Shown: positions 23,153 to 38,468 of the stretch, in pieces
Numbering within the stretch: the first letter of the stretch is position 1
Layout of the letters: each line of letters opens with the position of its first letter
Virus record (IMG/VR): IMGVR_UViG_3300045988_101835
Strand: one strand, 5' to 3'
Origin: a virus
DNA: 64,000 bases
The notes under the pieces: generated by a model
Told to the model about the DNA's origin: nothing
Databases searched by the model: none
What the model saw: only the letters and a program-made list of their open reading frames with translations
Position numbers and translations under genes: made by a program

Positions 23153-26100
23153 ATGGGAAAAGGTTTTTGGGAACACATGGTTGCGGACAGCACGTCATGG
23201 GTTCAGGATTCGAATGAGCGTCTTAAGGAGTACCTTGAGGGTTCTTTGAGTAAGGCGGGTCTGGAGTCTTTCGTTACGGTTATGCCGCGGCGTGACGGTT
23301 ATCGTATTTATGCTGGGGAGAAGCCGGACGCTCCTTTTGCATATGTAGATGTTTATTTGGACGGCAATGCTTTGGTTGTTGAGGGTTCCAGCAAGCGGCA
23401 TCTTTCGGAGCAGGAGATGGGTGACTTGGCGCGTTTCCTCGGCATTTCGGGTTCGGAGGCTGGTGAGAAGCTCAATCGCTTCCGCAAGTTCATCGACGCG
23501 CTTCAGAAGCACGCGGGCGAGGACGTTGACAAGCTTGAGGACTTGAAGGTTTCGGATGCCTGTGGCAAGGCCGCTAAGGGTCAGAAGATCGGCAAGGCTG
23601 CACCGGAGGCGATTGTGTCAGATGATTTTGGGGCTTCGGCTGAGGTTTACTTGGCTCATGATGGCGACATGTCTTTCGATGACGCTGCCGATATTATTTC
23701 TTCTTTCAATACTGATTACAGTTTGGAGGATGGTCTTTTGTGGGTTTCTGAGAAGTGGGTTGATCCGTCGGATTCTGCCACTGAAGTTAATCTTGCATTT
23801 GCGGCTGGTATTCTCGGTATTGCCAATGGGGATGATATTGTAGCTTCCGATCTTTACGCTAGCTTGTCGGATGACGAGGTTTACGAGAAGCTTGCGGTTA
23901 AAGATTTGGTTGTTCAGGTATATACCTCAGATCATCGCGAGCATCATGAGTTTATTTATAAGGACCCTTCTTATGAATTACTTCGCAAGGTTGCGCGTAC
24001 TGTTCTGTTCTTCTCCGAGGCTCGGGACAACTACAAGGACACTTATGAGGGTCTTAAGAAGATTTTGCCTGCTGCCCAGATCAGCGATTCTGTCTCTGTG
24101 AATTTTAAGAATTCGAAGGGTGGTTCTGTTGTTCGTCAGCTTGCAGGTCAGCGAATTGGCAAGGATGTTTCGAAGGCCCGTCCTGTTCGGGACTCGAAGG
24201 CTTCGGAGGTTGCTAAGATCGACAAGGCTTTGGACTTGGTTCGCAATGCCTATAAGAGCACTGGTAAGAAGTCGGAGGTCAAGGGCATGTCTTTGGACAT
24301 CAAGGGTCTCGATGACGCAGTTGTAGACCTGAAGGCATATAAGTCTGGTAAGGAGGATAAGATTGCCGTTGAGATTCGTTGGAAGGATGGTGAGCGCAAG
24401 GGCTTCGATTATGGTATCGACGCTAAGGCTTCTCATGTTTACGGTGACATTGTTTCGTTAAAGAAGGTCGCCGACAGCTTGGAGGACCCTACGGAGGATT
24501 TAATTGGCGTTGCTAGGGAGGGTGACGTTACTTACGCCGAAGTCGAGAGTATCTTCTCGTCTAATGGTGTCAAGCCGTCTCTTGATGATCGCATTTTTTG
24601 GGTCAACTATAAGTGGGACGATCCGGAGGCTTCGGGGGGTACGGTTCGTATTGACCTGTCTTCGGGTCTTGCAGGCATTGGGGTTCTTGATGAGTATGAG
24701 TCGCTGTTTGTCATGCAGGAGGATCGCTTCCTGCAGGAAGTTAAGGTTGACTATGCTTTAGTTCAGACTACCTTGTATCCGGATAGTAAAGATGCTGAGA
24801 TTGAGTACAAGGAATTCTATTATGAGAATCCCTCGAAGTTCACTCTTAGTCGTATTTCTCGCCTTTTTAAGGCTGTTAGCATCATGGCATTGTCTTATGA
24901 GGGTACTGTACAGCTCTTGGAGGCTGGTCTTCCGAAGGAGGGTCGCGTTTCTGACTCGGTTCATGTTGACATTAAGAATCGCAAGGGTGGCGCTTCGGTT
25001 CGTCAGGTTGAAGGTTCTTGCATAGGCAAGCCTGTTGCAAAGGCGTGCCCGGTTCGTGATTCGAAGCTTGCGGGTCAGAAGGTCGGCAAGGCCGCTCCGA
25101 AGGCTAAGGTTAGTGACTTTGCTGCAGTTCCTGAGTCGGCTTTGGTGCCGTTCCAGAATGCTTGGGCTAAGCTGCAGTCTAATTCCAAGCTTCCGAAGGC
25201 GAAGACGTCTATTGACTATATGGGCGATCTTATTCCTGTTGAGTTGGAGCGCAAGGGAGCAGATGCTGTGGATGTTCGCGTTAACGGCAAGTCTGTTGGT
25301 AGTTACGACTTGAAGAAGGACAGCGCTGACTACGTTTTCAATGCCATTATTGGTCGTGATGATACTACGGTGGGTGATCGCGTTGACAATGGTCTTTCGA
25401 AGACGTCGGATGCTGCTGGTAATTCGGGAATCGAGATGCTTAAATTGCTTTCCCACCTTCTTCTCAATGATATTGATTACACGTTGCAAGATGACGGTTC
25501 GGTTGATGTCGATATCCCTATCGGTTCAGGCAGTGATGGTAGTATTGCAATCACTTTGTCGGGGAATGCTCCTGATTTGAATTCGGCTTTGAAGGGTACT
25601 GTTACGAATGCGAATATTTCAGTTAGTGTGAATGGTTCTGGTGTGCGGTCTTGGGTTGTTTCTTCCTTAGATGCATCAAAGTTAAAGGATGTTCTTTTAG
25701 ATTTGCATGCCTTGTCTGGGAGTTCTTCGGCCACTGTCGATGAGGCTATTGCTATTCTTGACGTTGCTTATGAAGATTTTGCTAAGTCTGCTGTTGCGGA
25801 TGCTGTTGAGGGTACTTTTGCTCCGCAGACTAAAGTTCGCATTAAGTCTCTTTTGACAACCGATCCTTATGGCCATAGCGGCGATGCTGGTGTGGTTCTC
25901 GGTCGTTTGGATGTCGATCCGGATACGGTTGTTGTATTGTTCGAGTCGGGTGTTCCTGTTGCCTTGTATGACATTGACGCTATCGCGCTGGACGGCACTC
26001 CCGCGAAGACTCAGGATGCTGCTCCGGCACCCTTTGCTAAAGTGAAGGAGGGTCTGGAGTTGTTCGTTCCTTTAGCTATCACGGCTCATGGGGGTTCGGT

Positions 26101-26983
26101 AGGTGCTGATTCGGTTACTATTACTGAAGGTGCTGCTGGTCGCATCTCCGTTGGTCTGGCTGCTGACTTGGGCGATACTGAAGTTTCTGCGGCTGCGGCT
26201 GCACTTGACAACGTTGCTCGGGTCTTGGGTTATGCAGCATCGAAAGAAGCTGATGGTCGCACCTTCTTGTTGACTCCGCTTCGTGTTTCGGATTCTGTAG
26301 AGGATGCAGCTAGTTTAGTAGCTTCTCTGGAGTCTGACTCGTCTATCGAGAATCAGCGTCGTGTTGCCGACATAATGCTGAAGAATGATATGCATGTTCT
26401 GAAGGATGGTCGCAAGGAGATTATGGTCATTGCTAATGCCGATACTGATATTCCGTTGTTCTCCTTCAAGCAGCATGCGTGGATGAATATTCACGATAAG
26501 GCTTTGGATTCTGGCGATGCTTTTGGGGTTTATAATCTCAAAGAGCGTAGATGGTTCTTGGCTCCGGAGGATGCCCGTGCGGCTCGTTGGGGTTTTGAAG
26601 ATGCAGCTAAGCGTTATGCCAGCAAGGAAGATGCTGAGGCAGCTCTTAATGAGGTGGCGGAGCTTCAGCCCGGTACAGCCAAGAGTGCTTTTGTTGTGAA
26701 GCCGTTGGGTCGGGTTTCGGACTCGGAGAAGCGTTCGGATTTCGTCTTTCCTGCGGATTCCTCGGATGTGAATGACGGCAAGGGTCACTTTCCTTTGAAC
26801 AGTCTCCGTCGTGCTCGTGCTGCTATCGCTTACGCGAATAAGTATCAGGAGCTTCCTACGTGGTACTCGGGTGATCTTGACCTGAAGGGCTTCGTCGATA
26901 AGATTGTGTCGGAGGTCAAGAAGCAGTATCCGTCTATTGAAATTTCCCCGGAGTCTTATATTCCTGCTCCGGATCAGAAATAG
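23153..26983 (+). CDS. Very large (1276 aa) late protein with an internal duplication; possibly virion-associated
   Basis: Longest ORF in the window. Repeated modules at about aa 165-350 and 455-640. Terminator immediately downstream. Confidence 0.8.
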   Translation: MGKGFWEHMVADSTSWVQDSNERLKEYLEGSLSKAGLESFVTVMPRRDGYRIYAGEKPDAPFAYVDVYLDGNALVVEGSSKRHLSEQEMGDLARFLGISGSEAGEKLNRFRKFIDALQKHAGEDVDKLEDLKVSDACGKAAKGQKIGKAAPEAIVSDDFGASAEVYLAHDGDMSFDDAADIISSFNTDYSLEDGLLWVSEKWVDPSDSATEVNLAFAAGILGIANGDDIVASDLYASLSDDEVYEKLAVKDLVVQVYTSDHREHHEFIYKDPSYELLRKVARTVLFFSEARDNYKDTYEGLKKILPAAQISDSVSVNFKNSKGGSVVRQLAGQRIGKDVSKARPVRDSKASEVAKIDKALDLVRNAYKSTGKKSEVKGMSLDIKGLDDAVVDLKAYKSGKEDKIAVEIRWKDGERKGFDYGIDAKASHVYGDIVSLKKVADSLEDPTEDLIGVAREGDVTYAEVESIFSSNGVKPSLDDRIFWVNYKWDDPEASGGTVRIDLSSGLAGIGVLDEYESLFVMQEDRFLQEVKVDYALVQTTLYPDSKDAEIEYKEFYYENPSKFTLSRISRLFKAVSIMALSYEGTVQLLEAGLPKEGRVSDSVHVDIKNRKGGASVRQVEGSCIGKPVAKACPVRDSKLAGQKVGKAAPKAKVSDFAAVPESALVPFQNAWAKLQSNSKLPKAKTSIDYMGDLIPVELERKGADAVDVRVNGKSVGSYDLKKDSADYVFNAIIGRDDTTVGDRVDNGLSKTSDAAGNSGIEMLKLLSHLLLNDIDYTLQDDGSVDVDIPIGSGSDGSIAITLSGNAPDLNSALKGTVTNANISVSVNGSGVRSWVVSSLDASKLKDVLLDLHALSGSSSATVDEAIAILDVAYEDFAKSAVADAVEGTFAPQTKVRIKSLLTTDPYGHSGDAGVVLGRLDVDPDTVVVLFESGVPVALYDIDAIALDGTPAKTQDAAPAPFAKVKEGLELFVPLAITAHGGSVGADSVTITEGAAGRISVGLAADLGDTEVSAAAAALDNVARVLGYAASKEADGRTFLLTPLRVSDSVEDAASLVASLESDSSIENQRRVADIMLKNDMHVLKDGRKEIMVIANADTDIPLFSFKQHAWMNIHDKALDSGDAFGVYNLKERRWFLAPEDARAARWGFEDAAKRYASKEDAEAALNEVAELQPGTAKSAFVVKPLGRVSDSEKRSDFVFPADSSDVNDGKGHFPLNSLRRARAAIAYANKYQELPTWYSGDLDLKGFVDKIVSEVKKQYPSIEISPESYIPAPDQK

Positions 26984-27006
26984 GTTGGTATAATTTTTAA
27001 GTGAGA

Positions 27007-27032
27007 GGTGGAGTTTCGGCTCCACCTTTTTT
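27007..27032 (+). terminator. Rho-independent terminator (ggtggag-tttcgg-ctccacc-tttttt)
   Basis: Perfect 7-bp stem followed by T6. Confidence 0.8.
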
Positions 27033-27043
27033 ATTGCATTAAT

Positions 27044-27075
27044 TTGTTTATTAAATTAATTATACTTATATTTGT
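27044..27075 (+). promoter_or_regulatory. Bacteroidota-type promoter (TTTG, 20 nt, TAtaTTTG)
   Basis: tttg at 27044-27047 and tatatttg at 27068-27075. Confidence 0.65.
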
Positions 27076-27117
27076 AGCATGAAGTACGTTGATTGTGCAA
27101 CTTAATATGCTTTGGTA

Positions 27118-27465
27118 ATGAGTAAGTGTTTGTCATTTGCAGATGTTTATGAGGTGCTGGAGGCGTCTTCCTCGGCTGGCCATTCGTACGGGAGTGACGG
27201 CTGCTTTCGTGTCTTCTACGACGGTGCTTCTGTATCATGTTGCCTTGAGGTTCATACAGCATTGTCTACGTTTCCGTCGCGCGATATGCGTGAGGTTCCT
27301 GTTCATTCTTTGCTTGTAGATTTTGTGTCGTTTGCGTATCAGGGGTCTGCTCCTGACATGTCTCGCACTTTGGAGTTCCAGTCTCCGACGTCGTTGTGGT
27401 TGGTTTCGAAGGTTGTGTCTGTGTTGCAAGACCTTTGTGCATCATGTCGCGGGGGGTCTTCCTAA
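27118..27465 (+). CDS. Hypothetical protein
   Basis: ATG at 27118 in ORF-track ORF 27112..27465. Confidence 0.5.
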   Translation: MSKCLSFADVYEVLEASSSAGHSYGSDGCFRVFYDGASVSCCLEVHTALSTFPSRDMREVPVHSLLVDFVSFAYQGSAPDMSRTLEFQSPTSLWLVSKVVSVLQDLCASCRGGSS

Positions 27466-27469
27466 CCGT

Positions 27470-27553
27470 ATGGTTATTGTAGACCAAGTCGTTGCTTCGC
27501 TTCAGTCTTTGGGTTTCACTCTTGGTAACTTTCCGATTTATGGTGACGAGTAA
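27470..27553 (+). CDS. Possible 27-aa peptide (MVIVDQVVASLQSLGFTLGNFPIYGDE)
   Basis: ATG-initiated tail of ORF-track frame 27323..27553. It fills an intergenic gap. Confidence 0.3.
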   Translation: MVIVDQVVASLQSLGFTLGNFPIYGDE

Positions 27554-27926
27554 ACGTGATGCCTTCTTTGCAGATGTTGCTAAGCGGCGCATCGATAGCG
27601 AGTTCTGGGTTGATCCGACTGGCCGTGTTGTTCGTCTTCGTGTGTCGGACGATCTGGACTGGGCTGTTATTTCAAGTATTGTTTCTATGCATGGGAGTAT
27701 TGCAGAGCAGCAGTTCAGTGATTGTATTGGCTCTCCGGAGGATTATGCTAGGAAGTTGGGTTGGATTTCTGTTCAGCTTGATAACGAGTATCGTGCCCCT
27801 CATTGCTACAAAGAGCCTACGCAGTCGCAGATAAATACGATGTTTGATTTTGGTTACGCTCTTAATGATGGTACGGGGTTCTCAATGCTTGGTCCTGTGT
27901 GGTCGTTTCATAAATTGCCGAAGTGA
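27540..27926 (+). CDS. Hypothetical protein
   Basis: ATG at 27540 in ORF-track ORF 27492..27926. Confidence 0.5.
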   Translation: MVTSKRDAFFADVAKRRIDSEFWVDPTGRVVRLRVSDDLDWAVISSIVSMHGSIAEQQFSDCIGSPEDYARKLGWISVQLDNEYRAPHCYKEPTQSQINTMFDFGYALNDGTGFSMLGPVWSFHKLPK

Positions 27927-28156
27927 TGAATTGTTCTTTTCTGAAGCGGTTTTCGCGTTCTGCTTTCTTACGGGGCGGAGTTGTTAGTCACCATAAGTTC
28001 GCCTACTTAGTATTTGATTGGCGGCGTTTGTCTGTCGAGTTGGGTGCGGACTGGTATGGCCTTGCGTTTGGGCTTCGTCTGTCTTGCTGGGCCGTACGAG
28101 TTGACTTTTTGGTTTTCAACTTTGAGGTTTCTTTGGTTTCGGAGGATGAGTCATAG
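27926..28156 (+). CDS. Hypothetical protein
   Basis: ATG at 27926 overlaps the upstream TGA. Confidence 0.45.
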   Translation: MNCSFLKRFSRSAFLRGGVVSHHKFAYLVFDWRRLSVELGADWYGLAFGLRLSCWAVRVDFLVFNFEVSLVSEDES

Positions 28157-28165
28157 GGTTGGTGC

Positions 28166-30949
28166 ATGATGATACGTTCGGTGCGGTTTATAGAGTCTTA
28201 TTATAAGGTCCTGCATAACGGTTGTGAGTTTTACAACCGGGATGCAGGTCTTATGACGTCTGATGATTTTAAGTCTTCGGATGTCAAGTGGCTCATTGTG
28301 TTTCCGTCTTCGTCGTTCGACAAGGATAATTCGATGACGCCTACGGTTCTGTTGGACTTTGTTCGCAGTTCGTGTCCGGGTGTCTTCATTGACTTTGCTT
28401 TTCTGCCTTGCCGGGATGACATTCGGTGGTATGACAAGGAGAGTATGCCTTACGCTATTGGTGTGTCATCCCATCTGGACGCTTCTCACTTTGACATTGT
28501 AGGCTTTAGTATTTCGTGCTTGTACGAGATTCCGGTAGTTCCGTGGATGCTTCAGTCTTTTTCGCGCTGCGATAAGCCTATTCCGCTTTCGTGGTCGGAG
28601 CGGAGTAAGTATAATATTGATGAGCTTCCGGTCATCTATGCAGGCGGTGCTTCTGTGGTCTACTCAGACATTCTGTTTGGTGATTTAGGCGATGGTCGCA
28701 AGAGCTATCTGGATTTCATGCATCTGGGTCAGGTCTGGTCCCAGACTCGCCTACTGCAGCTCATGTTGAATAAGAAGTACAAGAATCCGATTCGTATTGG
28801 TCGTGTTCCTTATCTTCTTTGGGAGCGTGGTGATCGTCATTGCTATATGCCGCAGGCTTATGATATTGTCTTTGATGGTTGTCGTGTAGTATCGGTTACG
28901 CCGACGTCATCTTCCGTCCCTTCGTCGGTTGTTTTTAATACGGGTCAGGAGAAGCCGTCGGGGCTTCTTGGTGCTTCTCGGGGTTATCTTCGTGGTTCGG
29001 GTGGCAACGCGGGGCTGGCTATGGTCTCTGCTGCGGAGGGTTGTGGCTTTACGGGTAACTGTACCTTTTGTGCCGAGGGTCACATTGCGGGGGGCTTGCA
29101 TGAGGAGTCGCAGGATGATATTGTTCGTATGGCCCGGGCAGCTAAGATATCGTCGGGTGCGGATACGGTTAAGCTTGCGTCTTACAATTTGAATTATCTT
29201 ACGGATTGGAAAGGCACGGTTGCTAGGGTTCAGGAGGTTTTTCCTACTGTTTCCTTCAGCAATATGCGGATGGAGGAGCTTGGTCGGGATGAGGATGCTA
29301 TGGAGCTGCTTTTTCAGCTAGGGTTCCGTCGCGGCACTGCTCCTATTGAGGGTATTAGTCCTCGTATTCGTAATGGGTATTATAATAAGGGGCTGTCCGA
29401 GGAGGCGCTGGATTCTTACATGCGTTTCATGGTTCATAGGGGTTGCTTGGACATCAAGGTTGGTATTGTCCTTTGCGGCCTTGAGGAGGGTGCTGATTGG
29501 CAGTGGTTGTATGACTTCACTAAGCGCTGGAAGGACTACGCTGCTTCCCGCGGGGGTAAGCTACCTATTCGGTATCGTTGTACGCCTTTGGTTCAGTATC
29601 CTTTGACGCCTATGGAGTATACGGCTAAGTCCGCCGCTCGCATTAGTTATGAGGATGGTGAGTGGGTTCCACGGTATTGGTTTGACAAGTTTGCTGCGGA
29701 GCTTGATACGCGCATTCAGGTTAACGGCTATCGTTACAGTACGTTGCTGGAGCAGGTTTTTGTGAGCTTGGGTCGTAAGATGACTTCGTCCTTGCAGTCG
29801 GTTTTGTCTTCCGGGCATTTCCTGTACAACATGCGCGCTTTGACTACTTCGTCTTTTATGGATGATATCCGTTCGGTTATTTCCGCCGATGCTGCATCTT
29901 TCTTTGAGATGCCGGATATTGATTCCTATGTTTCCATTCTGTCGGCGGTGTCCTCTCCTTTTTCAGAGGTTTGTAAGTTGCAGGGACGTAACATCCAGTC
30001 GGGGCTTTCGGCGCTTCCTATGAGTCGTTGCCTTCGTACTAATGCAGTAGATCGCCTTACATGCTATGAGAAGATTTCAGGGGGTTGTACGGGGTGTGTT
30101 GGGAAGGCTGCCTCCTTGCGTCCATTTAACCGTCAGTTGCTATCTTCGGTCACTTCGAAGGATATTCTTGCCGTTGTTAAGCCAGAAACGGTCCAAACGC
30201 TTCGTTTCAGGATAAAGAGGTATGGTTACGCCACAGTTTTAAATCCGCGTCATACAGCGCATATTTTGGCCTCGGCATTAATGCAGCATTCTGAGGTTTC
30301 GGCTGCGTCCTTTATTCGTGTATCGAAGATTCACTCTATGTATGGTCAGTCTTATGCGGATAGTCATTGGGACGTTAGTGGGAGTCAGTTAGTAGACCTT
30401 GAGTTTAGGACATTGCTTTCTACAGATGTGGTTAATGCTGCGATTGCGTCTGCGAATTCGATACTACAGTCTTTTACGATTATGGGCTTCTCGGATGGGA
30501 GTCTTGATTCCGGTATTGAGTTGACAGACATGAATGTTTTCACGTTCCGGTCGGATTTGCCATTGGAGGTTTGGGATTTCGTTTTGCCGGAGTACGATGG
30601 TTCTGTCATGGTCCTTGAGGGTGACAAGTATTATCCTCATCTTTTGAAGTCGGGGCCGTTATCTGCCCCGGTTGTTGGGGGTGCTTCGGGAGGTTCGAAG
30701 GGTGTCTTCGTGCTTCCGGTCCGTTGCAATCCGTGGTACTATCTTCGTGCTGTTTTGCGTCCTAAGCGAGTACATCCCAATAAACTTTATAGAGATACGT
30801 TTATTGACTGCGTTACAACGGTTAGGGTTAGGGATTATGCTGCTTGTAGTGGCTGTGGTTCCTCGAATGCCGTTTATGATATAGGTTCGGGTAAGCCTTA
30901 TAACTTCTGCACGAGTTGTTTGGCAAAGTTATTATTGAAGAAGTTGTGA
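28166..30949 (+). CDS. B12-binding-domain radical SAM protein (TIGR03960/DUF2344-like) with an atypical CX5CX2C cluster motif and a C-terminal zinc ribbon
   Basis: AAEGCGFTGNCTFCAEG. GTAPIEGISPRIRNGYYNKGLSEE resembles TFAPEAGSqRLRdvInKgite. The N-terminal region resembles a B12 domain. CSGCG...CTSC at the end. Confidence 0.65.
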   Translation: MMIRSVRFIESYYKVLHNGCEFYNRDAGLMTSDDFKSSDVKWLIVFPSSSFDKDNSMTPTVLLDFVRSSCPGVFIDFAFLPCRDDIRWYDKESMPYAIGVSSHLDASHFDIVGFSISCLYEIPVVPWMLQSFSRCDKPIPLSWSERSKYNIDELPVIYAGGASVVYSDILFGDLGDGRKSYLDFMHLGQVWSQTRLLQLMLNKKYKNPIRIGRVPYLLWERGDRHCYMPQAYDIVFDGCRVVSVTPTSSSVPSSVVFNTGQEKPSGLLGASRGYLRGSGGNAGLAMVSAAEGCGFTGNCTFCAEGHIAGGLHEESQDDIVRMARAAKISSGADTVKLASYNLNYLTDWKGTVARVQEVFPTVSFSNMRMEELGRDEDAMELLFQLGFRRGTAPIEGISPRIRNGYYNKGLSEEALDSYMRFMVHRGCLDIKVGIVLCGLEEGADWQWLYDFTKRWKDYAASRGGKLPIRYRCTPLVQYPLTPMEYTAKSAARISYEDGEWVPRYWFDKFAAELDTRIQVNGYRYSTLLEQVFVSLGRKMTSSLQSVLSSGHFLYNMRALTTSSFMDDIRSVISADAASFFEMPDIDSYVSILSAVSSPFSEVCKLQGRNIQSGLSALPMSRCLRTNAVDRLTCYEKISGGCTGCVGKAASLRPFNRQLLSSVTSKDILAVVKPETVQTLRFRIKRYGYATVLNPRHTAHILASALMQHSEVSAASFIRVSKIHSMYGQSYADSHWDVSGSQLVDLEFRTLLSTDVVNAAIASANSILQSFTIMGFSDGSLDSGIELTDMNVFTFRSDLPLEVWDFVLPEYDGSVMVLEGDKYYPHLLKSGPLSAPVVGGASGGSKGVFVLPVRCNPWYYLRAVLRPKRVHPNKLYRDTFIDCVTTVRVRDYAACSGCGSSNAVYDIGSGKPYNFCTSCLAKLLLKKL

Positions 30950-31239
30950 GTGAGTTTGAGTGCAGCTTGAAGTGGCTTATTGCTGATCTGTGTATTTGTT
31001 CCCATTCTTTGTTGCGGGGTAAGTCCGTAACCCGGAGTTTTGGTTTTGCTGATTTCGGTGTTTATGGGACGATACGTTTTACACGGAGTGCTACGGATAA
31101 CTACTCATTGACTGGCGTATTCAGTGGCAATGGCTCGGATCAGTTTGGCGAGTTGGTCATTCCTTATTGCCCTTACGTGGGTTTTGACGAATACGCTCGC
31201 AATTTTGTTGATTTTATAAAAGAAAAAGTTTTAGTTTGA
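30946..31239 (+). CDS. Hypothetical protein (GTG start overlapping the upstream stop)
   Basis: GTGA overlap at 30946-30949. Confidence 0.45.
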   Translation: MSEFECSLKWLIADLCICSHSLLRGKSVTRSFGFADFGVYGTIRFTRSATDNYSLTGVFSGNGSDQFGELVIPYCPYVGFDEYARNFVDFIKEKVLV

Positions 31240-31242
31240 GTA

Positions 31243-31557
31243 ATGGGAAGAAGTGTTTCTCGTGAGAGTGTTGAGGTTCGTCCGGGTTTTTCCGTTGATA
31301 TGACGGGCCAGCAGCGAGCTTTTTGGTCTACGCTTACGTCGGTTCCGGTTGGGGATCAAGTGTCCACGGAGGAGCTTTCTACGAAGCTGGATATTGAGAT
31401 TCGCAATTTGCGTGTCTTGAAGAACAAGGTCGGGCGACTGGTATCACCTGCTTATATCATTAAGAGTAAGTGGGGTGGTTTTTACAGTTTGGTTCCGGTT
31501 TCGGATCAGGCTGCGGAGTCTACACCGACCGTTGCTTCGGAGTCGGTTTCGGAGTAG
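31243..31557 (+). CDS. OmpR/PhoB-type winged-helix DNA-binding protein
   Basis: MTGQQRAFWSTL...VSTEELS...IRNLRVLKNKVGRL...IIKSKWGGFYSL resembles the Trans_reg_C pattern. Confidence 0.5.
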   Translation: MGRSVSRESVEVRPGFSVDMTGQQRAFWSTLTSVPVGDQVSTEELSTKLDIEIRNLRVLKNKVGRLVSPAYIIKSKWGGFYSLVPVSDQAAESTPTVASESVSE

Positions 31558-31566
31558 TGGTGTTCT

Positions 31567-32172
31567 ATGAATCTTCCGGTGAGTCATATATGTCTACCTC
31601 CGGGGTTTCGTCACAAAAATTACCAGTGGTTAAAGTTGCTGGAGTTGTGGGGCGGTATTCGTGGTGGTGTTGAGGTTCGTGAGAACTTCATTACGGACGA
31701 TTTGGCTGTAGATGTTTTGGAGCATCTGCCGTGTGCATCGGGGGATCGTATTTCCTTTTGGTATACCCGAGACGTTGGGGGTCGTGGCAAAAATACTTCC
31801 GTTGACTACTTTGGTTTGGTAGGTTTATCCTTGTTGAACTTGTCGGACCGTCGTGTCATTATTACGGAGGGTGTTTCTGATTATTTGTCTGCTAAGTTGT
31901 GCTACCCGACCTTCAACGTTCTTGGGTTTACTTCTCTTGGTGGCAATTCGAAGGCTACCCGTATTGTCTTGTCGTTGTTCGACGAGCTTTATTATTTTGC
32001 GGATAATGACATGGATAAGCATGGGTTTAATACGGGTTTGCGTGCCGGGGGCAACGTTTTGAATTTTTATATGCGTCATGGTAAGCGTGTCCATGTTTTG
32101 ACACCGAATTTGCCTTATAAGGATACGACGCAGCAGTTTCTGGCAGACTTGGCGTTCGCGTTTAACAGTTAG
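31567..32172 (+). CDS. Toprim-domain protein (primase-like)
   Basis: VIITEGVSDYLS...LGFTSLGG...YYFADNDMDKHG...KD. Confidence 0.65.
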   Translation: MNLPVSHICLPPGFRHKNYQWLKLLELWGGIRGGVEVRENFITDDLAVDVLEHLPCASGDRISFWYTRDVGGRGKNTSVDYFGLVGLSLLNLSDRRVIITEGVSDYLSAKLCYPTFNVLGFTSLGGNSKATRIVLSLFDELYYFADNDMDKHGFNTGLRAGGNVLNFYMRHGKRVHVLTPNLPYKDTTQQFLADLAFAFNS

Positions 32173-32181
32173 GTTTCTTTT

Positions 32182-32958
32182 ATGGTTTACATGGGGTCTA
32201 AGGCGGCTTTGGTTTCGGAGCTTGGTCCTATTCTAAAGTCGCATTTGGTTTCGGATTCTCAGTGGTACATTGAGTGTTTTATGGGTGGTGGCAATATGAT
32301 TTCTATGATCGACCATCCTTTGCGCTGGGGTAATGACTACAATGATCTTCTGCCGGAGATGTTTTCGTATCTTCAGTCGAAGGTCTATTTTGATGAGCGC
32401 ACTTGTGAGTGGTGCTTTCCGGAGGATACTTTCCCCACGGAGGTATCTAAGGAGGAGTATATCTACATGCGTGGTCATAAGGAGGAGTTTCCGAAGTGGC
32501 TTGTGGCCTACGTTGGTTTCTGCTGTTCGTTTAAGGCTACGTTTTTTCAGGGTTATGCGGGTAAGATGTATCAGGATCGGAATCGCGCTTCTATTTTCAA
32601 GCAGTTCACGGCGCAGTATCATAACGGCATGCGGGGTGTTAAGCTGACTGCCGGGGATTATCGTGATATGGATATTCCGCGTGGGTCATTGTTGTACCTT
32701 GATCCGCCTTATGCCAATACGAGTGCTTATAAGTCTAGTGCAGGTTCTATTAATAAGTTCGATCATCCTGCGTTCTATCGTTGGTGTGTTTCACAGGTTA
32801 AGGACAATGAGTGTTCTGTGTTTTTGTCGGAGTATACGAAGCCGGATTACGGTACATGGGATACGGTTTGGCAGCAGATCAAGTTTAATAACATGTACTC
32901 GGGTGGTGGTCCTAAGCCGTTCAATGTAGAGAAGTTATTTCGCTGCATAGGTGAGTAA
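32182..32958 (+). CDS. dam: Dam-like DNA adenine methyltransferase (D12 class)
   Basis: MGSK, FMGGGN (motif I), ND.N, LLYLDPPY (motif IV), FLSEY. Confidence 0.8.
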   Translation: MVYMGSKAALVSELGPILKSHLVSDSQWYIECFMGGGNMISMIDHPLRWGNDYNDLLPEMFSYLQSKVYFDERTCEWCFPEDTFPTEVSKEEYIYMRGHKEEFPKWLVAYVGFCCSFKATFFQGYAGKMYQDRNRASIFKQFTAQYHNGMRGVKLTAGDYRDMDIPRGSLLYLDPPYANTSAYKSSAGSINKFDHPAFYRWCVSQVKDNECSVFLSEYTKPDYGTWDTVWQQIKFNNMYSGGGPKPFNVEKLFRCIGE

Positions 32959-32973
32959 GGTTTTTACCTTTTA

Positions 32974-33005
32974 TTTGGATTATTAAATTAACTTTTCTAT
33001 CTTTG
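32974..33005 (+). promoter_or_regulatory. Bacteroidota-type promoter (TTTG, 20 nt, TAtcTTTG), second copy of the promoter-leader cassette
   Basis: tttg at 32974-32977 and tatctttg at 32998-33005. Confidence 0.65.
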
Positions 33006-33050
33006 TGGTGTAGATATAGTTCTACAGGTAATTTAATATGGCTTTGAGTT

Positions 33051-33329
33051 ATGGGTACTACCTTCAAGGATTTGGCTTTGTTCTTTGTGTTTCTAGCTGA
33101 GGAAGGAGCTACGGCTCAGTTTTTCGAGAATTGGGTTCCCAACGATCCGTTTTGTCGTGCGTGTTCAGATATTGTAGGTTCGTTCACTTTGTGGGTTCAA
33201 AGATATGGCGTGGCTTGGGACTCTTATATTACTTCCTCTTTTCGTTGGGGGTGCTCCCTTGAAGGTCCTGCTTACTGGTCGGATTTAAACTTCAAATGGT
33301 TGAGTTATTATGGGACGGTTTGTAAGTAG
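33051..33329 (+). CDS. Hypothetical protein, paralog of ORF 2878..3177
   Basis: Shared F.FL.EEG...F......FRW...EG..YW.D...KW pattern. Confidence 0.55.
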   Translation: MGTTFKDLALFFVFLAEEGATAQFFENWVPNDPFCRACSDIVGSFTLWVQRYGVAWDSYITSSFRWGCSLEGPAYWSDLNFKWLSYYGTVCK

Positions 33330-33927
33330 CGACAGTGTGGTGTATACTCGCTTTTGCGAGATCATCAATGGGTTCACGGGTTATGCTATGACCCGTCAGG
33401 ACTTCGAGTCTATTCTGGAGCGATGTGGTAGTCCTTATGCGTGGAGTACGGTCCGGGCGTGGCTTAGGGGTTTGGAGCGCTTAGGCTTCGTTTATCCGTT
33501 GTATAACATCGACCAAGTGCGTTCGGGTGCTAAGCAGGTGTGGTTCTTGTATCATCCCTTGCTGCATCCTTTGCGTTCTACGGAGCTTAAGTACGCTAAG
33601 AGTCTTTCTCCTGTAGAGTCTATCCAGTTGAAGTTTTCTCCGGTTCTGTCTCGTTTAGGAGATACTCGTCCGTGGCATGCTGCTTTACATGCTATTAATT
33701 CTCGAGTTTTCCATGTAGACGTGAATCTTAAGTTCAAGATTGGTATGGGAGTTGTGAATCGGATTTTCGCTCCTCATGTTAATAGTTTGTTTGCGGCGCC
33801 TGTTGTATCTTCTATGTTTGTTATGAGCTTGATTGCTTCTGGGGTTTGTAAGAGGATTTACGAATTAAAGCTGCAGAAAGCCCACGCCTTTAGGCGTGGG
33901 ATGAATGCAGCCTATCTTTTCTTCTGA
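33310..33927 (+). CDS. Hypothetical (winged-helix-like) protein whose 3' end is replaced by IS605 left-end sequence
   Basis: The reading frame runs across the predicted IS boundary at 33861/33862. The last 22 codons are IS-derived. Confidence 0.6.
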   Translation: MGRFVSSDSVVYTRFCEIINGFTGYAMTRQDFESILERCGSPYAWSTVRAWLRGLERLGFVYPLYNIDQVRSGAKQVWFLYHPLLHPLRSTELKYAKSLSPVESIQLKFSPVLSRLGDTRPWHAALHAINSRVFHVDVNLKFKIGMGVVNRIFAPHVNSLFAAPVVSSMFVMSLIASGVCKRIYELKLQKAHAFRRGMNAAYLFF

Positions 33928-34310
33928 TCCTCGATATATCGACGTATTGTATCTTCAGAAATGTGTCCTATCGTCTCAACGTAATAGGATCGCGTCCAGA
34001 GGGTCGGCATGCGTGTCTGCAGCGACGGAAATTCAAGCCGGAGCGTATGTGATGTGTAACCCTTAAGCTGTGCCACAATCCGCGCAACCGGATCAATCGG
34101 GTTGGCCTTAATAAAAAGATGAACATGGTCGGGCATGACCTCCAGCGACTCGATAACCCATCCGAACTTGATAGCTTGCTCATGGAGCAAGACATTAAAA
34201 CGTTTTGCAATATCACCCGTTAAAACCTTTCGACGATACTTGGAGCACCAGATGATATGATAGGCTACATTATAGACGGAGCCTTTATTTATCTGCCAAC
34301 GGGTACGCAT
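33912..34310 (-). CDS. tnpA: IS200/IS605 Y1 (HUH) transposase TnpA
   Basis: MRTRWQINKGSVYNVAYHIIWCSKYRRKVL...MPDHVHLFI...GYTS...LWTRSYY carries the HUH and catalytic Tyr context. Internal ATG at 34310. Confidence 0.9.
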   Translation of the reverse strand: MRTRWQINKGSVYNVAYHIIWCSKYRRKVLTGDIAKRFNVLLHEQAIKFGWVIESLEVMPDHVHLFIKANPIDPVARIVAQLKGYTSHTLRLEFPSLQTRMPTLWTRSYYVETIGHISEDTIRRYIEDQKKR

Positions 34311-34318
34311 GGTTTTTA

Positions 34319-34350
34319 TTTGCAAAAATAGTATTCTATTCTTATATTTG
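34319..34350 (+). promoter_or_regulatory. Bacteroidota-type promoter inside the IS, driving tnpB
   Basis: tttg at 34319-34322 and tatatttg at 34343-34350, with 20-nt spacing. Confidence 0.6.
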
Positions 34351-34369
34351 TGGCATAAAGAGTACAATA

Positions 34370-35500
34370 ATGTTGACCTACAAGTACAAACTCTATAGGA
34401 CGCATCGGACCATATGGTTGGATCGGATGCTTCGTGAGTGTGCGTTTGTATGGAACCATGCGCTTGCACTTCAACGTAGATACTACCATTTGTACGGTAA
34501 GTACGTTTCGTCGGTAGATATGCAGAAGCATTTCGCCAAACGCATCAAGCGGCATCTATTGTACTCACATAATAGCGTTGAGGTATTACAGAGATTGGAC
34601 GCAGCTTACCAACGGTTCTTCAAGAAGCTTGCTAAGCGTCCGCCTAAGTTTCGCCGGGCTTCAGACTTTCAGTCATTCGTCTACAAACTCCACTATGGCT
34701 ATAAAATAGACGGCAATTGCTTTACAATTAACAGACTTAAGAAAACTTATAAATTTCACAAATCCCGTGACTTTGCGGGTGCAATAAAGACGGTTCGTGT
34801 TAAACGCGATCCATGCGGTGACTTTTGGTTATACATTACAACCGATGCCAAAGTAGAAGCCAGCAACACGACATATGATGGTGCGGTTGTAGGAATTGAC
34901 TTTGGCCTTAAGACATATCTGACGTTATCCGACGGGCGCAGCTATGCGAACCCGCAATTCTTCAAGCAGACGCTGCGCGACATCCGTAAGGCGCATCGTC
35001 GGCTGAGCCGTTCCGTCAAAGGATCCAATAACCACCGCCGTCGGTGGTTGGAGCTTGGTCGGATCTACCGTAGGATTAGCAATCATCGCGACGATTATCA
35101 GTGGCGCTTGGCACATGAGTTATGTCGTCGTTATTCTACGATCTGCTTGGAGACACTAAGCCTTGACGGGATGCGCCGGTTGTGGGGTCGCAAGGTTTCG
35201 GATCTCAGCCACGCATCGTTCGTATCGCACTTGGAATTCGTAGCCACTAAGTATGGCACGAGCGTTGTGCATGTCGACAAGTGGTTTGCTAGCAGCAAGA
35301 CGTGTAGTTGTTGCGGATACGTTAATAAGGAGCTTCGTTTGGTTGCTCGATCGTGGGTTTGTCCACAATGTGGTACGCACCATGATCGTGATCTAAACGC
35401 GGCGTTAAACATTAAGCGTTCGGGCATGGGCGCGTTGATTAGTGGTTGTAAGTCCGCTTCGGCGGCCGCCATGCTTGAGTCAAGAATCCAGCGGCTTTAG
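34370..35500 (+). CDS. tnpB: TnpB RNA-guided endonuclease, copy B
   Basis: 376 aa. VVGIDFGLK, ICLETLS and HDRDLNAALNI motifs. CSCCG...CPQCG zinc ribbon. Confidence 0.9.
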   Translation: MLTYKYKLYRTHRTIWLDRMLRECAFVWNHALALQRRYYHLYGKYVSSVDMQKHFAKRIKRHLLYSHNSVEVLQRLDAAYQRFFKKLAKRPPKFRRASDFQSFVYKLHYGYKIDGNCFTINRLKKTYKFHKSRDFAGAIKTVRVKRDPCGDFWLYITTDAKVEASNTTYDGAVVGIDFGLKTYLTLSDGRSYANPQFFKQTLRDIRKAHRRLSRSVKGSNNHRRRWLELGRIYRRISNHRDDYQWRLAHELCRRYSTICLETLSLDGMRRLWGRKVSDLSHASFVSHLEFVATKYGTSVVHVDKWFASSKTCSCCGYVNKELRLVARSWVCPQCGTHHDRDLNAALNIKRSGMGALISGCKSASAAAMLESRIQRL

Positions 35501-35537
35501 CCGCGGGAGTATGTCAAATATGGAGGTTATGATCTCG
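35350..35537 (+). ncRNA. Predicted omegaRNA of TnpB copy B: scaffold to 35517, guide about 35518-35537. Boundaries are approximate.
   Basis: By analogy with characterised TnpB systems. Hairpin gcggc-ttta-gccgc at 35491-35504. Confidence 0.35.
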
Positions 35538-35603
35538 CGGGTTGGGTCCTTAAGATTAAGTCTACTCTCTCGGATATGGGTGTTTCTTTGAACAGTGATT
35601 TTT

Positions 35604-37880
35604 ATGGCTGGGGGAAATAGTACTACTACTTTAGCGAATCTTTATCGTCCCAAGACTTTTGCGGACGTCGTGGGCCAGCCTTTGGCGGTTACCACCTTGA
35701 AGCGTATTGCCCATGCGGACGGTATCGCCGCACGTGCTATTTTTATGAAGGGTGCGTTTGGCTCCGGTAAAACTACGACTGCCCGTATTTTTGCTAGAGC
35801 TTTGAACTGTGATACTTTCAAGCAGACTGACGATGTTTGTAATACGTGTGATGGTTGTCTGGAGGCTTCGTCGGTTAATTCCTCTACGTATTGGGAGCTT
35901 GATGGTACAGTCATAGGTAACGTCGAGGGTATTCGTGCTCTGAAGGAGCGCTTGTCTATTGTTCCTAATGGTCGTAGGGTTGTCTGTCTTGACGAAGTTC
36001 AGAGTTGCTTGTACTATAATACACCTGTAGTGTGTGTATCAGATGACGGCAGTATTTACCGTCAGCCGATTCACAAGATTGTTAATAATCGGCTACCTGT
36101 GAAGGTTCTTTCGGTTAACGCTGCGGGAGGTCTTTGTGTTTCTCGTGTTACGGGTTGGTTTAAGAATCCTCTTAAGCAGTTATGTCGTATTAAGGTACGG
36201 GGCGCTTCTGGTCTTAAAAAGATTGGTTCTGGCTCGCGGGTAATAGTTTGTACTTTAGATCATCGCTTTTTACGTTCGGATGGTGAGTATGTTTGTGCTT
36301 CGGACTTACATTTAGGAGATTCGTTGTCATCTTTTTTTAGTGTGTGCGGGGATCGTTTTATTCAGGCAGAGCTTAATAAGCGTACTGAGTATATCATTTC
36401 CGATTCAACAAAGTCGTTCCTTTATGGGAGTCTTTTGGGTGATATGTACTTTTCTTCTGGTGATGTAAATTACAATTATCGTTTGAAGTGCACTCATGGA
36501 CATGTTCAGCTTTTTTGGTTACGTGAGAAGCATCGTATACTTGGGTGCTTAGCTGGGGCCTTGCGGGAGTTTGTTAGCTCGCCGGGTGCTTATGTTGATT
36601 CAGTTTCTGTTATGAATTCGTTGAGTCATCCTTTATTTACCGAGATGGCGAGAGTTTGTTGTGGTTCTGATGGGAAACGTCACGTAAATATGGAGTGGTT
36701 GTCTCATGTCGACGAGATAGGGTTAGCTGCTTGGTTTATGGATGATGGTTCTTATCATTTTCGTCGTTTGCGTAATAAACAGGTAACCTGCTTGCATGGG
36801 GTTCAACTGTCTACTCATAGCTTTACTTATGAGGAAAATGAACTTTTAGTTAAGTGGTTATCTGATCGTTGGGGTCTAGATTTTTATATTAGGGTTGATA
36901 AGAGATGTGGTAAGCCTTACTTAGTTTCTAGTCATGTTGAGTCTGCTAGGAAGTTTTTAGCACTTGTTGCTCCTTTCCTTTGCAAGGAGTTTCAATATAA
37001 GTTAGGTAACACTTTTGAGGCTGGTGGTGGTGTTAGGTCTATTCCAGCAATTTCCAAGCGAGTCCCGGAATACTTCGGCGGTTTTTTATTCGATGGGGTT
37101 GTCGAGAGTATTGAGATTTTTGACCCTCCGAAGTACTCATCTGTTAAATCTGGCTGTTTGTCTAGCGAGAATAAATATCCTTATGATAATGGTTGGGTAT
37201 ACGACTTGGAGGTAGCAGATACTCATTCTTATATTGCAGGCCGGGGATTTGTGGTTCATAACTGCAGCAGGAGTGCGAGTGACGCTTTATTGAAGGTTGT
37301 CGAGGAGGGAGTTCCTAATACGATCTTTCTCTTTTGTGGCACGGAGGATATCCAGCCAACTTTAAAGTCTCGTTGTGTAAATATTGACATTTCGGTTATT
37401 CCTTTGTCTTTGATTGCGGATCGCGTTCGGTTTATAGCTAACGACCGGGGTATCTCTATTACGGATGATCAGCTTCGAATCTTGGCTATGAAGTCTCAGG
37501 GTCACATGCGGGATGCCCTTCAGTTGCTTCAGTTTTACGAGCTTGCGGGCGAACGTGCTCTTGACAGCTCCTACTTCTTGTTCCGGGAGTTTGTGCGCTC
37601 TTGCTTCGCAAAGGGCGCCGATCCTTCGTCCGTTTTGCCAAAGCTGTTGGTTTATTCCACTGCAGATATAAAGATGTCTGTAGGGCTTCTTATTCGCAAT
37701 ATTTTCGGCAGTGTTCAGGATGACTCTTTGGAGTCTAAGTTCCAGCGTGCGGGTCTGGGTCAGACGTTGTTTAGCTTTTTCTTTTCTCCGTTAGCTCAGC
37801 AGGCTTTGGGTTCTGAGATTGGGACAGAGATTTTGCTTAGGTCTTTAATGGAGCGAACTGCGGGTTCTCGAAAGGTGTAG
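35604..37880 (+). CDS. Clamp-loader AAA+ ATPase (DnaX/RFC/gp44-like) interrupted by an intein
   Basis: LYRPKTFADVVGQ, Walker A GAFGSGKTT, Walker B CLDEVQS, then after the intein SASDALLKVVEEGVP and LKSRC. Confidence 0.85.
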   Translation: MAGGNSTTTLANLYRPKTFADVVGQPLAVTTLKRIAHADGIAARAIFMKGAFGSGKTTTARIFARALNCDTFKQTDDVCNTCDGCLEASSVNSSTYWELDGTVIGNVEGIRALKERLSIVPNGRRVVCLDEVQSCLYYNTPVVCVSDDGSIYRQPIHKIVNNRLPVKVLSVNAAGGLCVSRVTGWFKNPLKQLCRIKVRGASGLKKIGSGSRVIVCTLDHRFLRSDGEYVCASDLHLGDSLSSFFSVCGDRFIQAELNKRTEYIISDSTKSFLYGSLLGDMYFSSGDVNYNYRLKCTHGHVQLFWLREKHRILGCLAGALREFVSSPGAYVDSVSVMNSLSHPLFTEMARVCCGSDGKRHVNMEWLSHVDEIGLAAWFMDDGSYHFRRLRNKQVTCLHGVQLSTHSFTYEENELLVKWLSDRWGLDFYIRVDKRCGKPYLVSSHVESARKFLALVAPFLCKEFQYKLGNTFEAGGGVRSIPAISKRVPEYFGGFLFDGVVESIEIFDPPKYSSVKSGCLSSENKYPYDNGWVYDLEVADTHSYIAGRGFVVHNCSRSASDALLKVVEEGVPNTIFLFCGTEDIQPTLKSRCVNIDISVIPLSLIADRVRFIANDRGISITDDQLRILAMKSQGHMRDALQLLQFYELAGERALDSSYFLFREFVRSCFAKGADPSSVLPKLLVYSTADIKMSVGLLIRNIFGSVQDDSLESKFQRAGLGQTLFSFFFSPLAQQALGSEIGTEILLRSLMERTAGSRKV
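36006..37262 (+). mobile_element. Intein (419 aa) with a LAGLIDADG homing endonuclease, inserted after Walker B of the clamp loader
   Basis: Starts at Cys (CLYYNT), block B TLDH, LYGSLLGDMYF and LAAWFMDDGSY, ends VVHN followed by +1 Cys. Confidence 0.85.
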
Positions 37881-37889
37881 GTTTTTGTT

Positions 37890-38468
37890 ATGGTTGATCG
37901 CGTGGATATTGTAGATTTAGATTCTGCTGCTGAGGTTAGTGTTTCGTCGGCTCGTGTTGTTATAGATAAGCGGCTGTTGCTTTCTTTTTACATGCATCCT
38001 ACGGATGAGACTACGGAGGCGGAGCTTGCTGAGATTAATAAGGTCATCAGCATTGTTTTGAATACTCATTTTGGTAAGTATTACCGCATGTTTGATGACT
38101 TGCGTTCGCAGGCTCTTGCTACTATTATAGAGCGTCATGATCGCTTTGACTCGAAGATGGCAGCTTATCCTTATCTGTATACCATGATTCGCAATGAAGC
38201 GGGTAATTTGATTCGTCGTTTGCTTCGTGAGGATGACCTTGAGGTTCTGCCGCCGTCACGCGGTCGTGTTGCAGAGATTATTCCGAGTGTTTTAGACGAG
38301 CTTCTGCCGTTCTTGTCGGGTGACTCTCCGTTTACACGTATAGAGATTCCGCATGGTCTTGTAGGTCCGTTTCTTGTCTTTTGCCAATGTGGCTTAAACA
38401 AGAAACAGTCGGAGTCGGAGGCTATGGAGTCGGTTATCGGCAAATTGGTTGACATTTTTATTTTTTAA
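37890..38468 (+). CDS. Candidate phage sigma factor (sigma-70 region 2 / T4 gp55-like)
   Basis: 192 aa. HDRFDSKMAAYPYLYTMIRNEAGNLIRRLLRE resembles gp55 [30 protein letters not shown]. Hydrophobic tail LVDIFIF. Confidence 0.45.
   Translation: MVDRVDIVDLDSAAEVSVSSARVVIDKRLLLSFYMHPTDETTEAELAEINKVISIVLNTHFGKYYRMFDDLRSQALATIIERHDRFDSKMAAYPYLYTMIRNEAGNLIRRLLREDDLEVLPPSRGRVAEIIPSVLDELLPFLSGDSPFTRIEIPHGLVGPFLVFCQCGLNKKQSESEAMESVIGKLVDIFIF

Follow-up and report, generated by a model that had tools for sequence, protein, structure and literature searches.

A phage gene for a large radical SAM enzyme

The 64,000-nucleotide stretch of viral DNA analysed here (the window; IMG/VR record IMGVR_UViG_3300045988_101835) carries at 28166..30949, on the + strand, an open reading frame (ORF) that starts with ATG and encodes a 927-amino-acid (aa) radical S-adenosylmethionine (SAM or AdoMet) enzyme. 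A first-pass annotation, made from the sequence alone, had described this ORF as a radical SAM gene and quoted three strings from it, and AAEGCGFTGNCTFCAEG, GTAPIEGISPRIRNGYYNKGLSEE and IKVGIVLCGLEEG are each found within its translation. Along the protein, a B12-binding-like Rossmann domain is followed by the radical SAM barrel, a Cys4 metal site, a domain with a predicted pseudouridine synthase (PUS) fold and a zinc (Zn) ribbon (Table 1). The gene is real, conserved and intact: a 99%-identical protein represents 226 member sequences, homologues with 35–59% identity are found on contigs of 110–140 kb, and IMG/VR holds seven loci of the gene on viral contigs of up to 142 kb.

Direct assignment of the protein to a known family was attempted and abandoned, as Pfam, NCBIfam, PHROGs and PADLOC gave sub-threshold radical SAM matches or none. 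The Radical_SAM family PF04055 scored 23.5 bits over residues 292–413, short of its gathering score of 29.5, and passed in 45 of the 54 relatives scanned; Radical_SAM_N2 (PF19864) scored 22.7 bits over residues 71–168 and was matched by 47 of these relatives, with matches that pass its Pfam threshold and a best E of 4e-22. The top NCBIfam match was TIGR03960 ('B12-binding radical SAM protein'; 30 bits, E 1.9e-7, residues 33–552), a family with a curated cut-off of 462.3 bits. The B12-binding family PF02310 was not matched by the protein in the Pfam scan, and one canonical TIGR03960 relative alone has such a match. The PHROGs and PADLOC scans gave no match, nor did tblastn of the protein against GenBank phage records; megablast of the 24-kb neighbourhood against GenBank phages returned a single 128-bp match, at the end of a TnpB gene, and a profile search of PDB sequences returned nothing at E up to 1. 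No well-characterised family thus claims the protein. Profile searches and structure prediction, both proposed in the first-pass annotation, support a radical SAM core within a sister clade of TIGR03960.

Three groups of related proteins

A search of 1.84 billion cluster representatives with a profile built from ten homologues (alignment A1) returned 767 clusters (50% identity) at E ≤ 1e-3, of which 283 had E ≤ 1e-30. The proteins fall into three groups. Phage-type proteins of ~900–950 aa have in common all four regions of the window protein, and on the contigs looked at their gene lies among phage genes; many are much longer, owing to insertions. The second group is a cellular family of ~830 aa (for example P0236, from Candidatus Delongbacteria) that contains PF19864 and PF04055 without PF10105 and is annotated merely as 'radical SAM protein'. 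Its members come from metagenome-assembled genomes (MAGs) of Delongbacteria, Bacteroidia, Fibrobacter, Chitinivibrionales, Bdellovibrionota, Oligoflexia and Planctomycetota and, at ~160–190 bits against the family profile, are the closest cellular relatives by profile score. They resemble the phage type in architecture, Cys4 linker and a homologous C-terminal domain (C-domain), and are unlike it in having a CX3CX2C motif, an invariant N-terminal-domain (N-domain) His, no Zn ribbon, and genes that stand alone on chromosomes with no conserved neighbours. The third group comprises canonical proteins, in which TIGR03960 is fused to DUF2344 (PF10105); a distant phage-type profile reaches them with an E of 1.6e-47.

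Canonical proteins, with DUF2344/TIGR03936 fused or adjacent (for example P0387, from a Syntrophaceae MAG), have PF19864, the radical SAM core, the Cys4 linker and a PUS-clan C-domain in the same order as the phage protein and have the motifs xEGxS/TxRxR...NK, KhxhhhGhxxE and TP in common with it. The phage protein differs from them by CX5CX2C in place of CX3CX2C, by loss of the 'MSHLG' His and by its extra C-terminal Zn ribbon; moreover, its gene has its place in a phage replication module, not in the order rodA-[gene]-RNase E/G, and its phage relatives are invaded by inteins. In the phage-type and ~830-aa groups, TIGR03960 was the best NCBIfam match of all, yet at only 42–130 bits, and because these scores fall far below the cut-off we regard the window protein as belonging to a sister clade of TIGR03960 and not to the family itself. 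The resemblance to TIGR03960/DUF2344 that had been suggested at first pass is borne out at this level, TIGR03960 being the best NCBIfam match of the window protein and its relatives (30–130 bits) and a profile of phage-type relatives reaching the TIGR03960–PF10105 fusions. Judged by these profile matches, the phage-type proteins form a large phage-specific clade, several hundred clusters strong at 50% identity, within a superfamily that also holds the cellular TIGR03960/DUF2344 proteins.

Cluster motif and metal sites

The segment at 29042–29071 translates to CGFTGNCTFC, that is, CX5CX2C, and all 100 aligned sequences, phage-type and cellular, share C293, C299 and C302, so that the motif reported at first pass is real. 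Cellular 830-aa and canonical proteins have X3 as the first spacer, and phage-type proteins have X4–X6, with X5 in most cases (of the motif matches listed, 65 had X5, 29 X3, 13 X6 and 11 X4); Gly and Ser usually abound among the additional residues, CSGGGACSFC being an example. Since the length of the loop varies from X3 to X6, we interpret it as a tolerated expansion and not as a different mode of cluster binding. The longer cluster loop, described previously as 'two extra residues', is thus a genuine trait of the clade, with a length that varies between members. Beyond the motif, E304, S339-x-N341, R368-x-D/E370, E395-G396-x-S398-x-R400-x-R402, K408, K431-x-G-x-x-x-x-G438-x-E440 (of the GxIxGxxE type), D444 and T473-P-L475, further hallmarks of radical SAM enzymes, are kept in all groups. 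Judged by the invariant cluster cysteines and the SAM-binding-type motifs, the protein is a catalytically intact AdoMet radical enzyme.

In the N-domain, D76, R146, G160, G161, D183 and G188 are invariant in the phage, cellular and canonical groups. No conserved Cys was found there in the aligned relatives (C135 is part of an insertion that only the closest clade has), which excludes an auxiliary cluster of the MiaB type; we therefore discarded this candidate, its Cys triad being absent. The His of the S-x-T-H loop after the first strand is found in 30 of 30 cellular proteins, as well as in the canonical 'MSHLG', and is retained in 11 of 70 phage-type proteins, the window protein having Pro59. 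Of 70 phage-type members, 67–70 have the linker cysteines C622, C633, C641 and C644, which are nearly invariant in the cellular proteins too, and a Cys4 occupies the corresponding position in canonical TIGR03960 proteins. The linker could be an auxiliary Fe–S cluster or a Zn site. The C-terminal CSGC...CTSC Zn ribbon, also noticed at first pass, is confirmed in ~80% of phage-type members (C894, C897 and C918 in 53–58 of 70), and the segment is missing from 30 of 30 cellular relatives.

Predicted structure

An AlphaFold2 model computed from a 143-sequence alignment of phage, cellular and canonical proteins (A5) reached a predicted local distance difference test (pLDDT) score of 93.6 and a predicted template modelling score (pTM) of 0.94, with a pLDDT of ~90 in the C-domain; it superseded a first model from a 10-sequence alignment (pLDDT 63), which was good for the C-domain only. 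In Foldseek comparisons with the PDB, the N-domain and barrel matched best MiaB with bound RNA (7mjy, E 5.6e-7), MtaB (9a6d) and RimO (4jc0), with further matches to AprD4 (6fd2), BioB and LipA and also to MqnE and ThiH; MgmA was matched by the first model. The layout follows the logic of MiaB, MtaB and RimO, in which a flavodoxin-like N-domain and a radical SAM barrel are followed by a C-terminal substrate-binding domain. Unlike MiaB and RimO, the window protein has no three-Cys N-domain cluster, has a PUS-like C-domain, and shows no TRAM domain in the Pfam scan; its scores against methylthiotransferase (MTTase) families fell far short of the cut-offs, at 14.8 bits for TIGR01578 and 10.9 bits for TIGR00089 (cut-off 251). 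A fold search of BFVD gave generic B12-like radical SAM proteins only, with a query-normalised TM-score ≤ 0.31, and no full-length viral counterpart.

The last ~250 residues of the model matched PUS10 (2v9k, E 1.2e-4) and, with probability 1.0, TruA (1vs3, 1dj0) and PUS3–tRNA complexes; PUS-fold matches were also obtained with the first model. Identity in these structural alignments is 8–12%, so that the predicted likeness of this part to TruA, PUS3 and PUS10 is one of fold only, with no detectable sequence similarity. At the level of profiles, the phage C-domain aligned by hhalign to that of the cellular 830-aa family with a probability of 94.5% (E 7e-8), and to a DUF2344 profile of three sequences with an E of 0.19, which is not significant. 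A DUF2344 profile of 66 sequences, built from a metagenome scan that yielded 80 canonical loci, aligned with it at full length over 188 colinear columns, with P 2.9e-4 and a probability of 40%. In all three groups the C-domain follows the Cys4 segment right after the radical SAM core. A Pfam clan analysis lists 'PseudoU_synth_1+DUF2344' among splits of the pseudouridine synthase domain (PMC7955657), which indicates that Pfam treats DUF2344 as part of the pseudouridine synthase fold. On alignments, position, fold and Pfam clan together, the best reading of the C-domain is a divergent DUF2344-type domain. Because it is fused to a radical SAM enzyme, we consider it more likely to be a binding module than an isomerase.

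Inteins at the catalytic motifs

In homologues of 1170 aa, an insertion of ~220–240 aa falls precisely where CNF meets the third cluster Cys (...CNF|SVVGNT...ITHQ|CHEG), and longer relatives give LAGLIDADG and intein-splicing Pfam matches. When 56 insertions were mapped from domain-match breakpoints, recurrent sites were found just before C293, just before C302, near residue 306 and after the SFN341 motif, with further ones near residues 368, 384, 391, 428 and 440 and at T473|PLV. Single relatives hold up to three or four insertions, reaching 2148 aa. The window copy is without an intein, and none of the cellular relatives retrieved is as long as an intein-bearing protein. Homing of inteins is directed at the most conserved sites within proteins that a genome cannot lose; their location at catalytic motifs here supports the functional importance of the radical SAM gene.

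Inteins were also observed elsewhere in the window. The clamp-loader (DNA_pol3_delta2) gene at 35595–37880 is split by an intein with a LAGLIDADG homing endonuclease, and its homologue in L001, the related contig whose radical SAM protein is 59% identical, is an intein-free protein of 340 aa. Similarly, the 1101-aa ORF at 40109–43414 contains intein-splicing and LAGLIDADG_3 domains; it is probably the large terminase, because the intein-bearing ORF at the equivalent position in L001 matches the MJ0330_N domain, which marks genes of ~610–630 aa just upstream of the portal gene in the related loci L002, L014 and L015.

Genome context

Gene order around the radical SAM gene is kept in phages whose radical SAM proteins are 22–59% identical: an Mre11-like gene, a ~400-aa gene, (small genes) and the radical SAM gene are followed by (small genes), Toprim, clamp loader, a sigma-like gene, terminase and portal. 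This constant position among such divergent phages points to the functional importance of the gene. The window genome has a T4-like portal and major capsid protein and intein-bearing genes for the clamp loader and the probable terminase, and also encodes a RecA-like protein, an Mre11-like phosphoesterase and a protein with sigma-70 region 2. This last protein (192 aa, 24.7 bits) is encoded at 37890–38468, just after the clamp loader, a place kept in related phages, and is reminiscent of a phage late sigma factor.

Of 36 canonical TIGR03960+DUF2344 loci with full flanks, 21 have an RNase E/G gene immediately downstream, and its identity was confirmed by Pfam in 5 of 5 loci tested; this adjacency is a strong neighbourhood clue for the cellular family. 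Upstream of the canonical gene, Pfam confirmed a member of the RodA family in locus L072 and a PBP2-type gene in locus L077, the two loci tested.

Proposed function

We propose that the 927-aa enzyme very probably modifies nucleic acid, RNA and DNA being taken together. We see RNA, that is, tRNA or rRNA of host or phage, as the most likely substrate of this radical SAM modifier, with confidence a little better than even. RNA is favoured because of the PUS fold, the similarity to MiaB and MtaB, and the linkage of the canonical relatives to RNase E/G. In the proposed mechanism, a [4Fe–4S] cluster on C293, C299 and C302 would reductively cleave SAM to a 5′-deoxyadenosyl radical, which would take a hydrogen from a nucleotide within the nucleic acid. 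The PUS-like domain would hold the nucleic acid and probably flip out the base, helped by the Zn ribbon, and the B12-like domain, the Cys4 site or both would deliver the group to be installed. The reaction might be a C-methylation or a related C–H functionalisation of the sort catalysed by class B methylases and MiaB-type enzymes, which is a guess by analogy. The enzyme would be made in the early or middle phase, alongside the replication and recombination genes.

Several observations weigh against this proposal. The chemistry is drawn from fold and context alone, as a substrate is known for none of the superfamily's members. The neighbours of the phage gene serve recombination and replication of DNA (Mre11-like, Toprim, clamp loader), and no RNase E/G or other RNA-related genes adjoin it. 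The Foldseek E-values for the PUS fold are modest, at 1e-4 to 1e-3. By sequence, the connection of the C-domain to DUF2344 is weak: PF10105 was absent by hmmscan in 54 members, and the alignment to the 66-sequence DUF2344 profile reached a probability of 40%. Finally, loss of the N-domain His in most phage-type members may mean that their use of cofactor differs.

The same position in the genome would suit an enzyme that makes a radical-derived base modification in phage or replicating DNA, shielding the genome from nucleases of the host. Each of the seven contigs examined has the gene between Mre11-like/RecA-like and Toprim/clamp-loader/sigma genes; a Dam methylase belongs to the same predicted transcription unit here, the Zn ribbon is a phage-specific addition, the window contains a counter-defence Tad3 homologue, and the radical SAM family is rich in inteins, which are typical of DNA-metabolism genes. 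Nevertheless, the structural and evolutionary relatives all point to RNA (MiaB, MtaB, the PUS fold and the RNase E/G linkage), Dam is not kept with the radical SAM gene beyond the closest clade, and we know of no PUS-fold domain that acts on DNA; we therefore consider a DNA modifier unlikely, if still a serious contender. A shade less probable is that the phage clade was re-targeted from a presumed ancestral RNA to phage DNA or replication intermediates by way of a base-flipping PUS-like domain and a newly gained Zn ribbon, with a radical-derived DNA base modification as the outcome; it would then be a DNA hypermodification enzyme of a kind not known before in phages.

Structural neighbours such as AprD4, MqnE, BioB, LipA and ThiH, together with the distant phage L013, in which the gene lies beside a block of NrdD, NrdG, ThyX, SHMT and dUTPase, could instead indicate an enzyme of cofactor or nucleotide metabolism that acts on a small molecule or free nucleotide, its C-domain serving oligomerisation or regulation. 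Such adjacency occurs in a single contig of the seven, a small substrate would leave the large conserved PUS-like domain and the Zn ribbon hard to explain, and the top-scoring structural matches are macromolecule-modifying MTTases, which makes this quite improbable. The first-pass annotation had also offered an adjacent small peptide as substrate, and a maturase of peptides or proteins, acting like those of peptides made by ribosomes and modified after translation (RiPPs) or like RimO on the product of a neighbouring ORF or on a phage or host protein, would be compatible with the small ORFs that flank the gene, with the presence of RimO, a ribosomal-protein methylthiotransferase, among the structural matches and, by analogy only, with a Cys4 site after the core that recalls SPASM/twitch auxiliary clusters. 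We regard it as the most improbable of these alternatives. The upstream small ORFs are absent from the 35% and 39% clades and none is kept beyond the 59% clade; the failure of these ORFs and of Dam to persist across clades argues against a substrate peptide encoded next door. No RiPP-recognition or SPASM/twitch domain was found in the Pfam and NCBIfam scans, the cellular relatives stand alone without conserved neighbouring genes, and the C-domain has a fold typical of RNA binding. For want of a conserved small neighbour, a RiPP maturase was rejected as the leading idea.

Modification of RNA, the reading that we prefer, would, for tRNA or rRNA, add a new example of a phage that uses radical chemistry to rewrite its host's translation apparatus; were the substrate DNA, the enzyme would represent a new kind of phage genome modification, and under re-targeting to DNA the gene would be a core hypermodification gene of a large gut and environmental phage lineage with T4-like capsids. 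The radical SAM family TIGR03960/DUF2344, very widespread in bacteria, is functionally uncharacterised: our literature search found no published function, the family names being mentioned in passing only, and found nothing on PF19864 or on a phage radical SAM enzyme with a PUS-like domain, nor, judging by title or abstract, anything relevant on inteins, radical SAM enzymes and phages in combination. The superfamily and its domain architecture were known already. New are the phage clade with its expanded cluster loop, Zn ribbon and lost N-domain His, the intein sites, and the fixed place in the replication module. As a compact single-polypeptide version, the phage protein offers a useful entry to the chemistry of the whole superfamily.

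Transcription unit and adjacent genes

The coordinates of the protein regions and of the surrounding unit are collected in Table 1.

Table 1 Regions of the radical SAM protein and features of its predicted transcription unit
Feature	Coordinates	Strand	Basis or remark
Intrinsic-terminator-like hairpin (GGUGGAG/CUCCACC core) with U-tract	27003..27038	+	closes the upstream 1276-aa gene
Promoter-like element TTTG-N20-TATATTTG, Bacteroidota type	27043..27074	+	−33 TTTG / −7 TATATTTG
Small ORF, 117 aa from TTG	27112..27465	+	first of the unit; ATG at 27119
Small ORF, 144 aa from TTG	27492..27926	+	ATG at 27541
Small ORF, 77 aa, GTG start	27923..28156	+	just upstream of the radical SAM gene
Radical SAM N-domain, Rossmann/flavodoxin-like, B12-binding-like	28253..28915	+	~residues 30–250; PF19864
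Radical SAM (AdoMet radical) TIM-barrel core	29015..29845	+	~residues 284–560; PF04055, Foldseek
Putative [4Fe–4S]-binding motif C293-GFTGN-C299-TF-C302	29042..29071	+	translation, alignment
Cys4 linker C622, C633, C641, C644	30029..30097	+	translation, alignment
C-terminal domain, two beta-alpha-beta-beta-alpha-beta halves, pseudouridine-synthase-like fold	30176..30835	+	predicted structure, hhalign
Zinc-ribbon-like C894-x2-C897 ... C915-x2-C918, translation CSGCGSSNAVYDIGSGKPYNFCTSC	30845..30919	+	alignment
ORF, 107 aa	30916..31239	+	overlaps the end of the radical SAM gene
ORF, 104 aa	31243..31557	+	conserved downstream partner
Toprim-like protein, 201 aa	31567..32172	+
Dam-type N6-adenine DNA methyltransferase	32182..32958	+	last gene of the unit
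Next promoter-like element	32974..33005	+	just after the Dam gene; marks the end of the unit

The promoter that had been placed at 27044 corresponds to a Bacteroidota-type promoter-like element, with the −33/−7 consensus of Bacteroides promoters; a sigma-70 promoter scan found nothing at 27044. The pattern TTTG-N18-22-TAnnTTTG occurs at 10 sites in the window, all on the + strand, against 1.98 expected, and 0 of 100 shuffles reached 10. Such sites, of the form TTTG-N19-21-TAnnTTTG, include 3666, 16925, 27043, 32974 and 45724 (+), and those at 16925, 32974 and 45724 are among the ones with a longer consensus, TTTGsATAATTAAATTAAyTTTyTTATmTTTG. The hairpin that precedes the element has a folding energy of −17.8 kcal/mol (z −4.3), and 0 of 200 shuffles folded as well; it was missed by a consensus terminator scan, probably because the extension of its stem runs into the U-tract.

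The radical SAM gene had been taken to head this operon and is instead the fourth ORF of the unit, with three small ORFs before it. The first of these has no homologue beside the radical SAM gene in six related loci (L001, L002 and L012–L015). The second matched nothing in Pfam, PHROG or PADLOC, and its homologues, in two copies, are confined to the 59%-identity clade represented by L001; for the third, no homologue was found in the related loci compared. Downstream, the 107-aa ORF has a homologue in L001 only among the loci compared, and the 104-aa ORF has homologues in L001, L012 and L002, in each case downstream of the radical SAM gene. The 104-aa protein, the putative 'winged helix' of the first-pass annotation, gave no family or structure match in Pfam, PHROG or PDB; a PDB sequence search with this protein and with the Toprim-like one was uninformative. 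The Toprim label is weak for the window protein itself (Toprim_3, E 0.0095, below threshold) and gains support from L013, L014 and L015, where the genes in the corresponding place match Toprim_2, weakly so in L014; homologues of the window protein are found in L001, L012 and L002 (29–66% identity), with a marginal match in L015. The Dam methylase was identified correctly at first pass (PF02086, 42.6 bits with a cut-off of 22; phrog_56, E 9e-29) and accompanies the radical SAM gene in the closest clade only. Beyond that clade, the 104-aa ORF and the Toprim-like gene alone track the radical SAM gene, in the clades of 35–59% identity.

Other features of the window

Upstream of the unit, the 1276-aa ORF at 23153–26983 has no family match and contains many 'RVSDS'-like motifs as well as internal duplications, such as two copies of a ...SDSV.V..KN.KGG..VRQ..G..IGK.V.KA.PVRDSK segment; it is well conserved in L001 at its C-terminal end only. 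Strand asymmetry is strong and uniform over the 64 kb, with a GC skew of ~+0.1 to +0.2 and an AT skew of ~−0.2 to −0.35. Nearly all long ORFs lie on the + strand, which is rich in G and T, and the skew relaxes only at an insertion sequence (IS) element at 34–36 kb. This IS200/IS605-type element, situated between the operon and the clamp-loader gene, encodes a TnpA-like protein (33912–34469, −) and TnpB (34370–35500, +); a second TnpB copy (PF01385 and a Cas12f1-like TNB domain) lies at 235–1344, and the closest TnpB relatives, with 82–97% identity, are in a rabbit-gut Muribaculaceae MAG.

An 88-kb contig binned with an uncultured Muribaculaceae MAG (L018, CANQWS010000007.1) is ~96% identical to the window over 30156–33148 and 35019–37883. 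It is without the clamp-loader intein (window ~36009–37252), and only the 3′ part of TnpB matches the window. The match hints at a Bacteroidales host, or at a binning artefact; the hint of a Bacteroidales host fits the Bacteroidota-type promoter motif. A 234-aa ORF at 15234–15938, an anti-defence candidate, matches Tad3, an inhibitor of type I Thoeris (PF25185, 92 bits). Upstream, at 13978–14631, lies a gene for a second DNA methylase (N6_N4_Mtase), and an ORF for a NUMOD3/I-HmuI-like homing endonuclease lies at 52199–53239, near the capsid gene.

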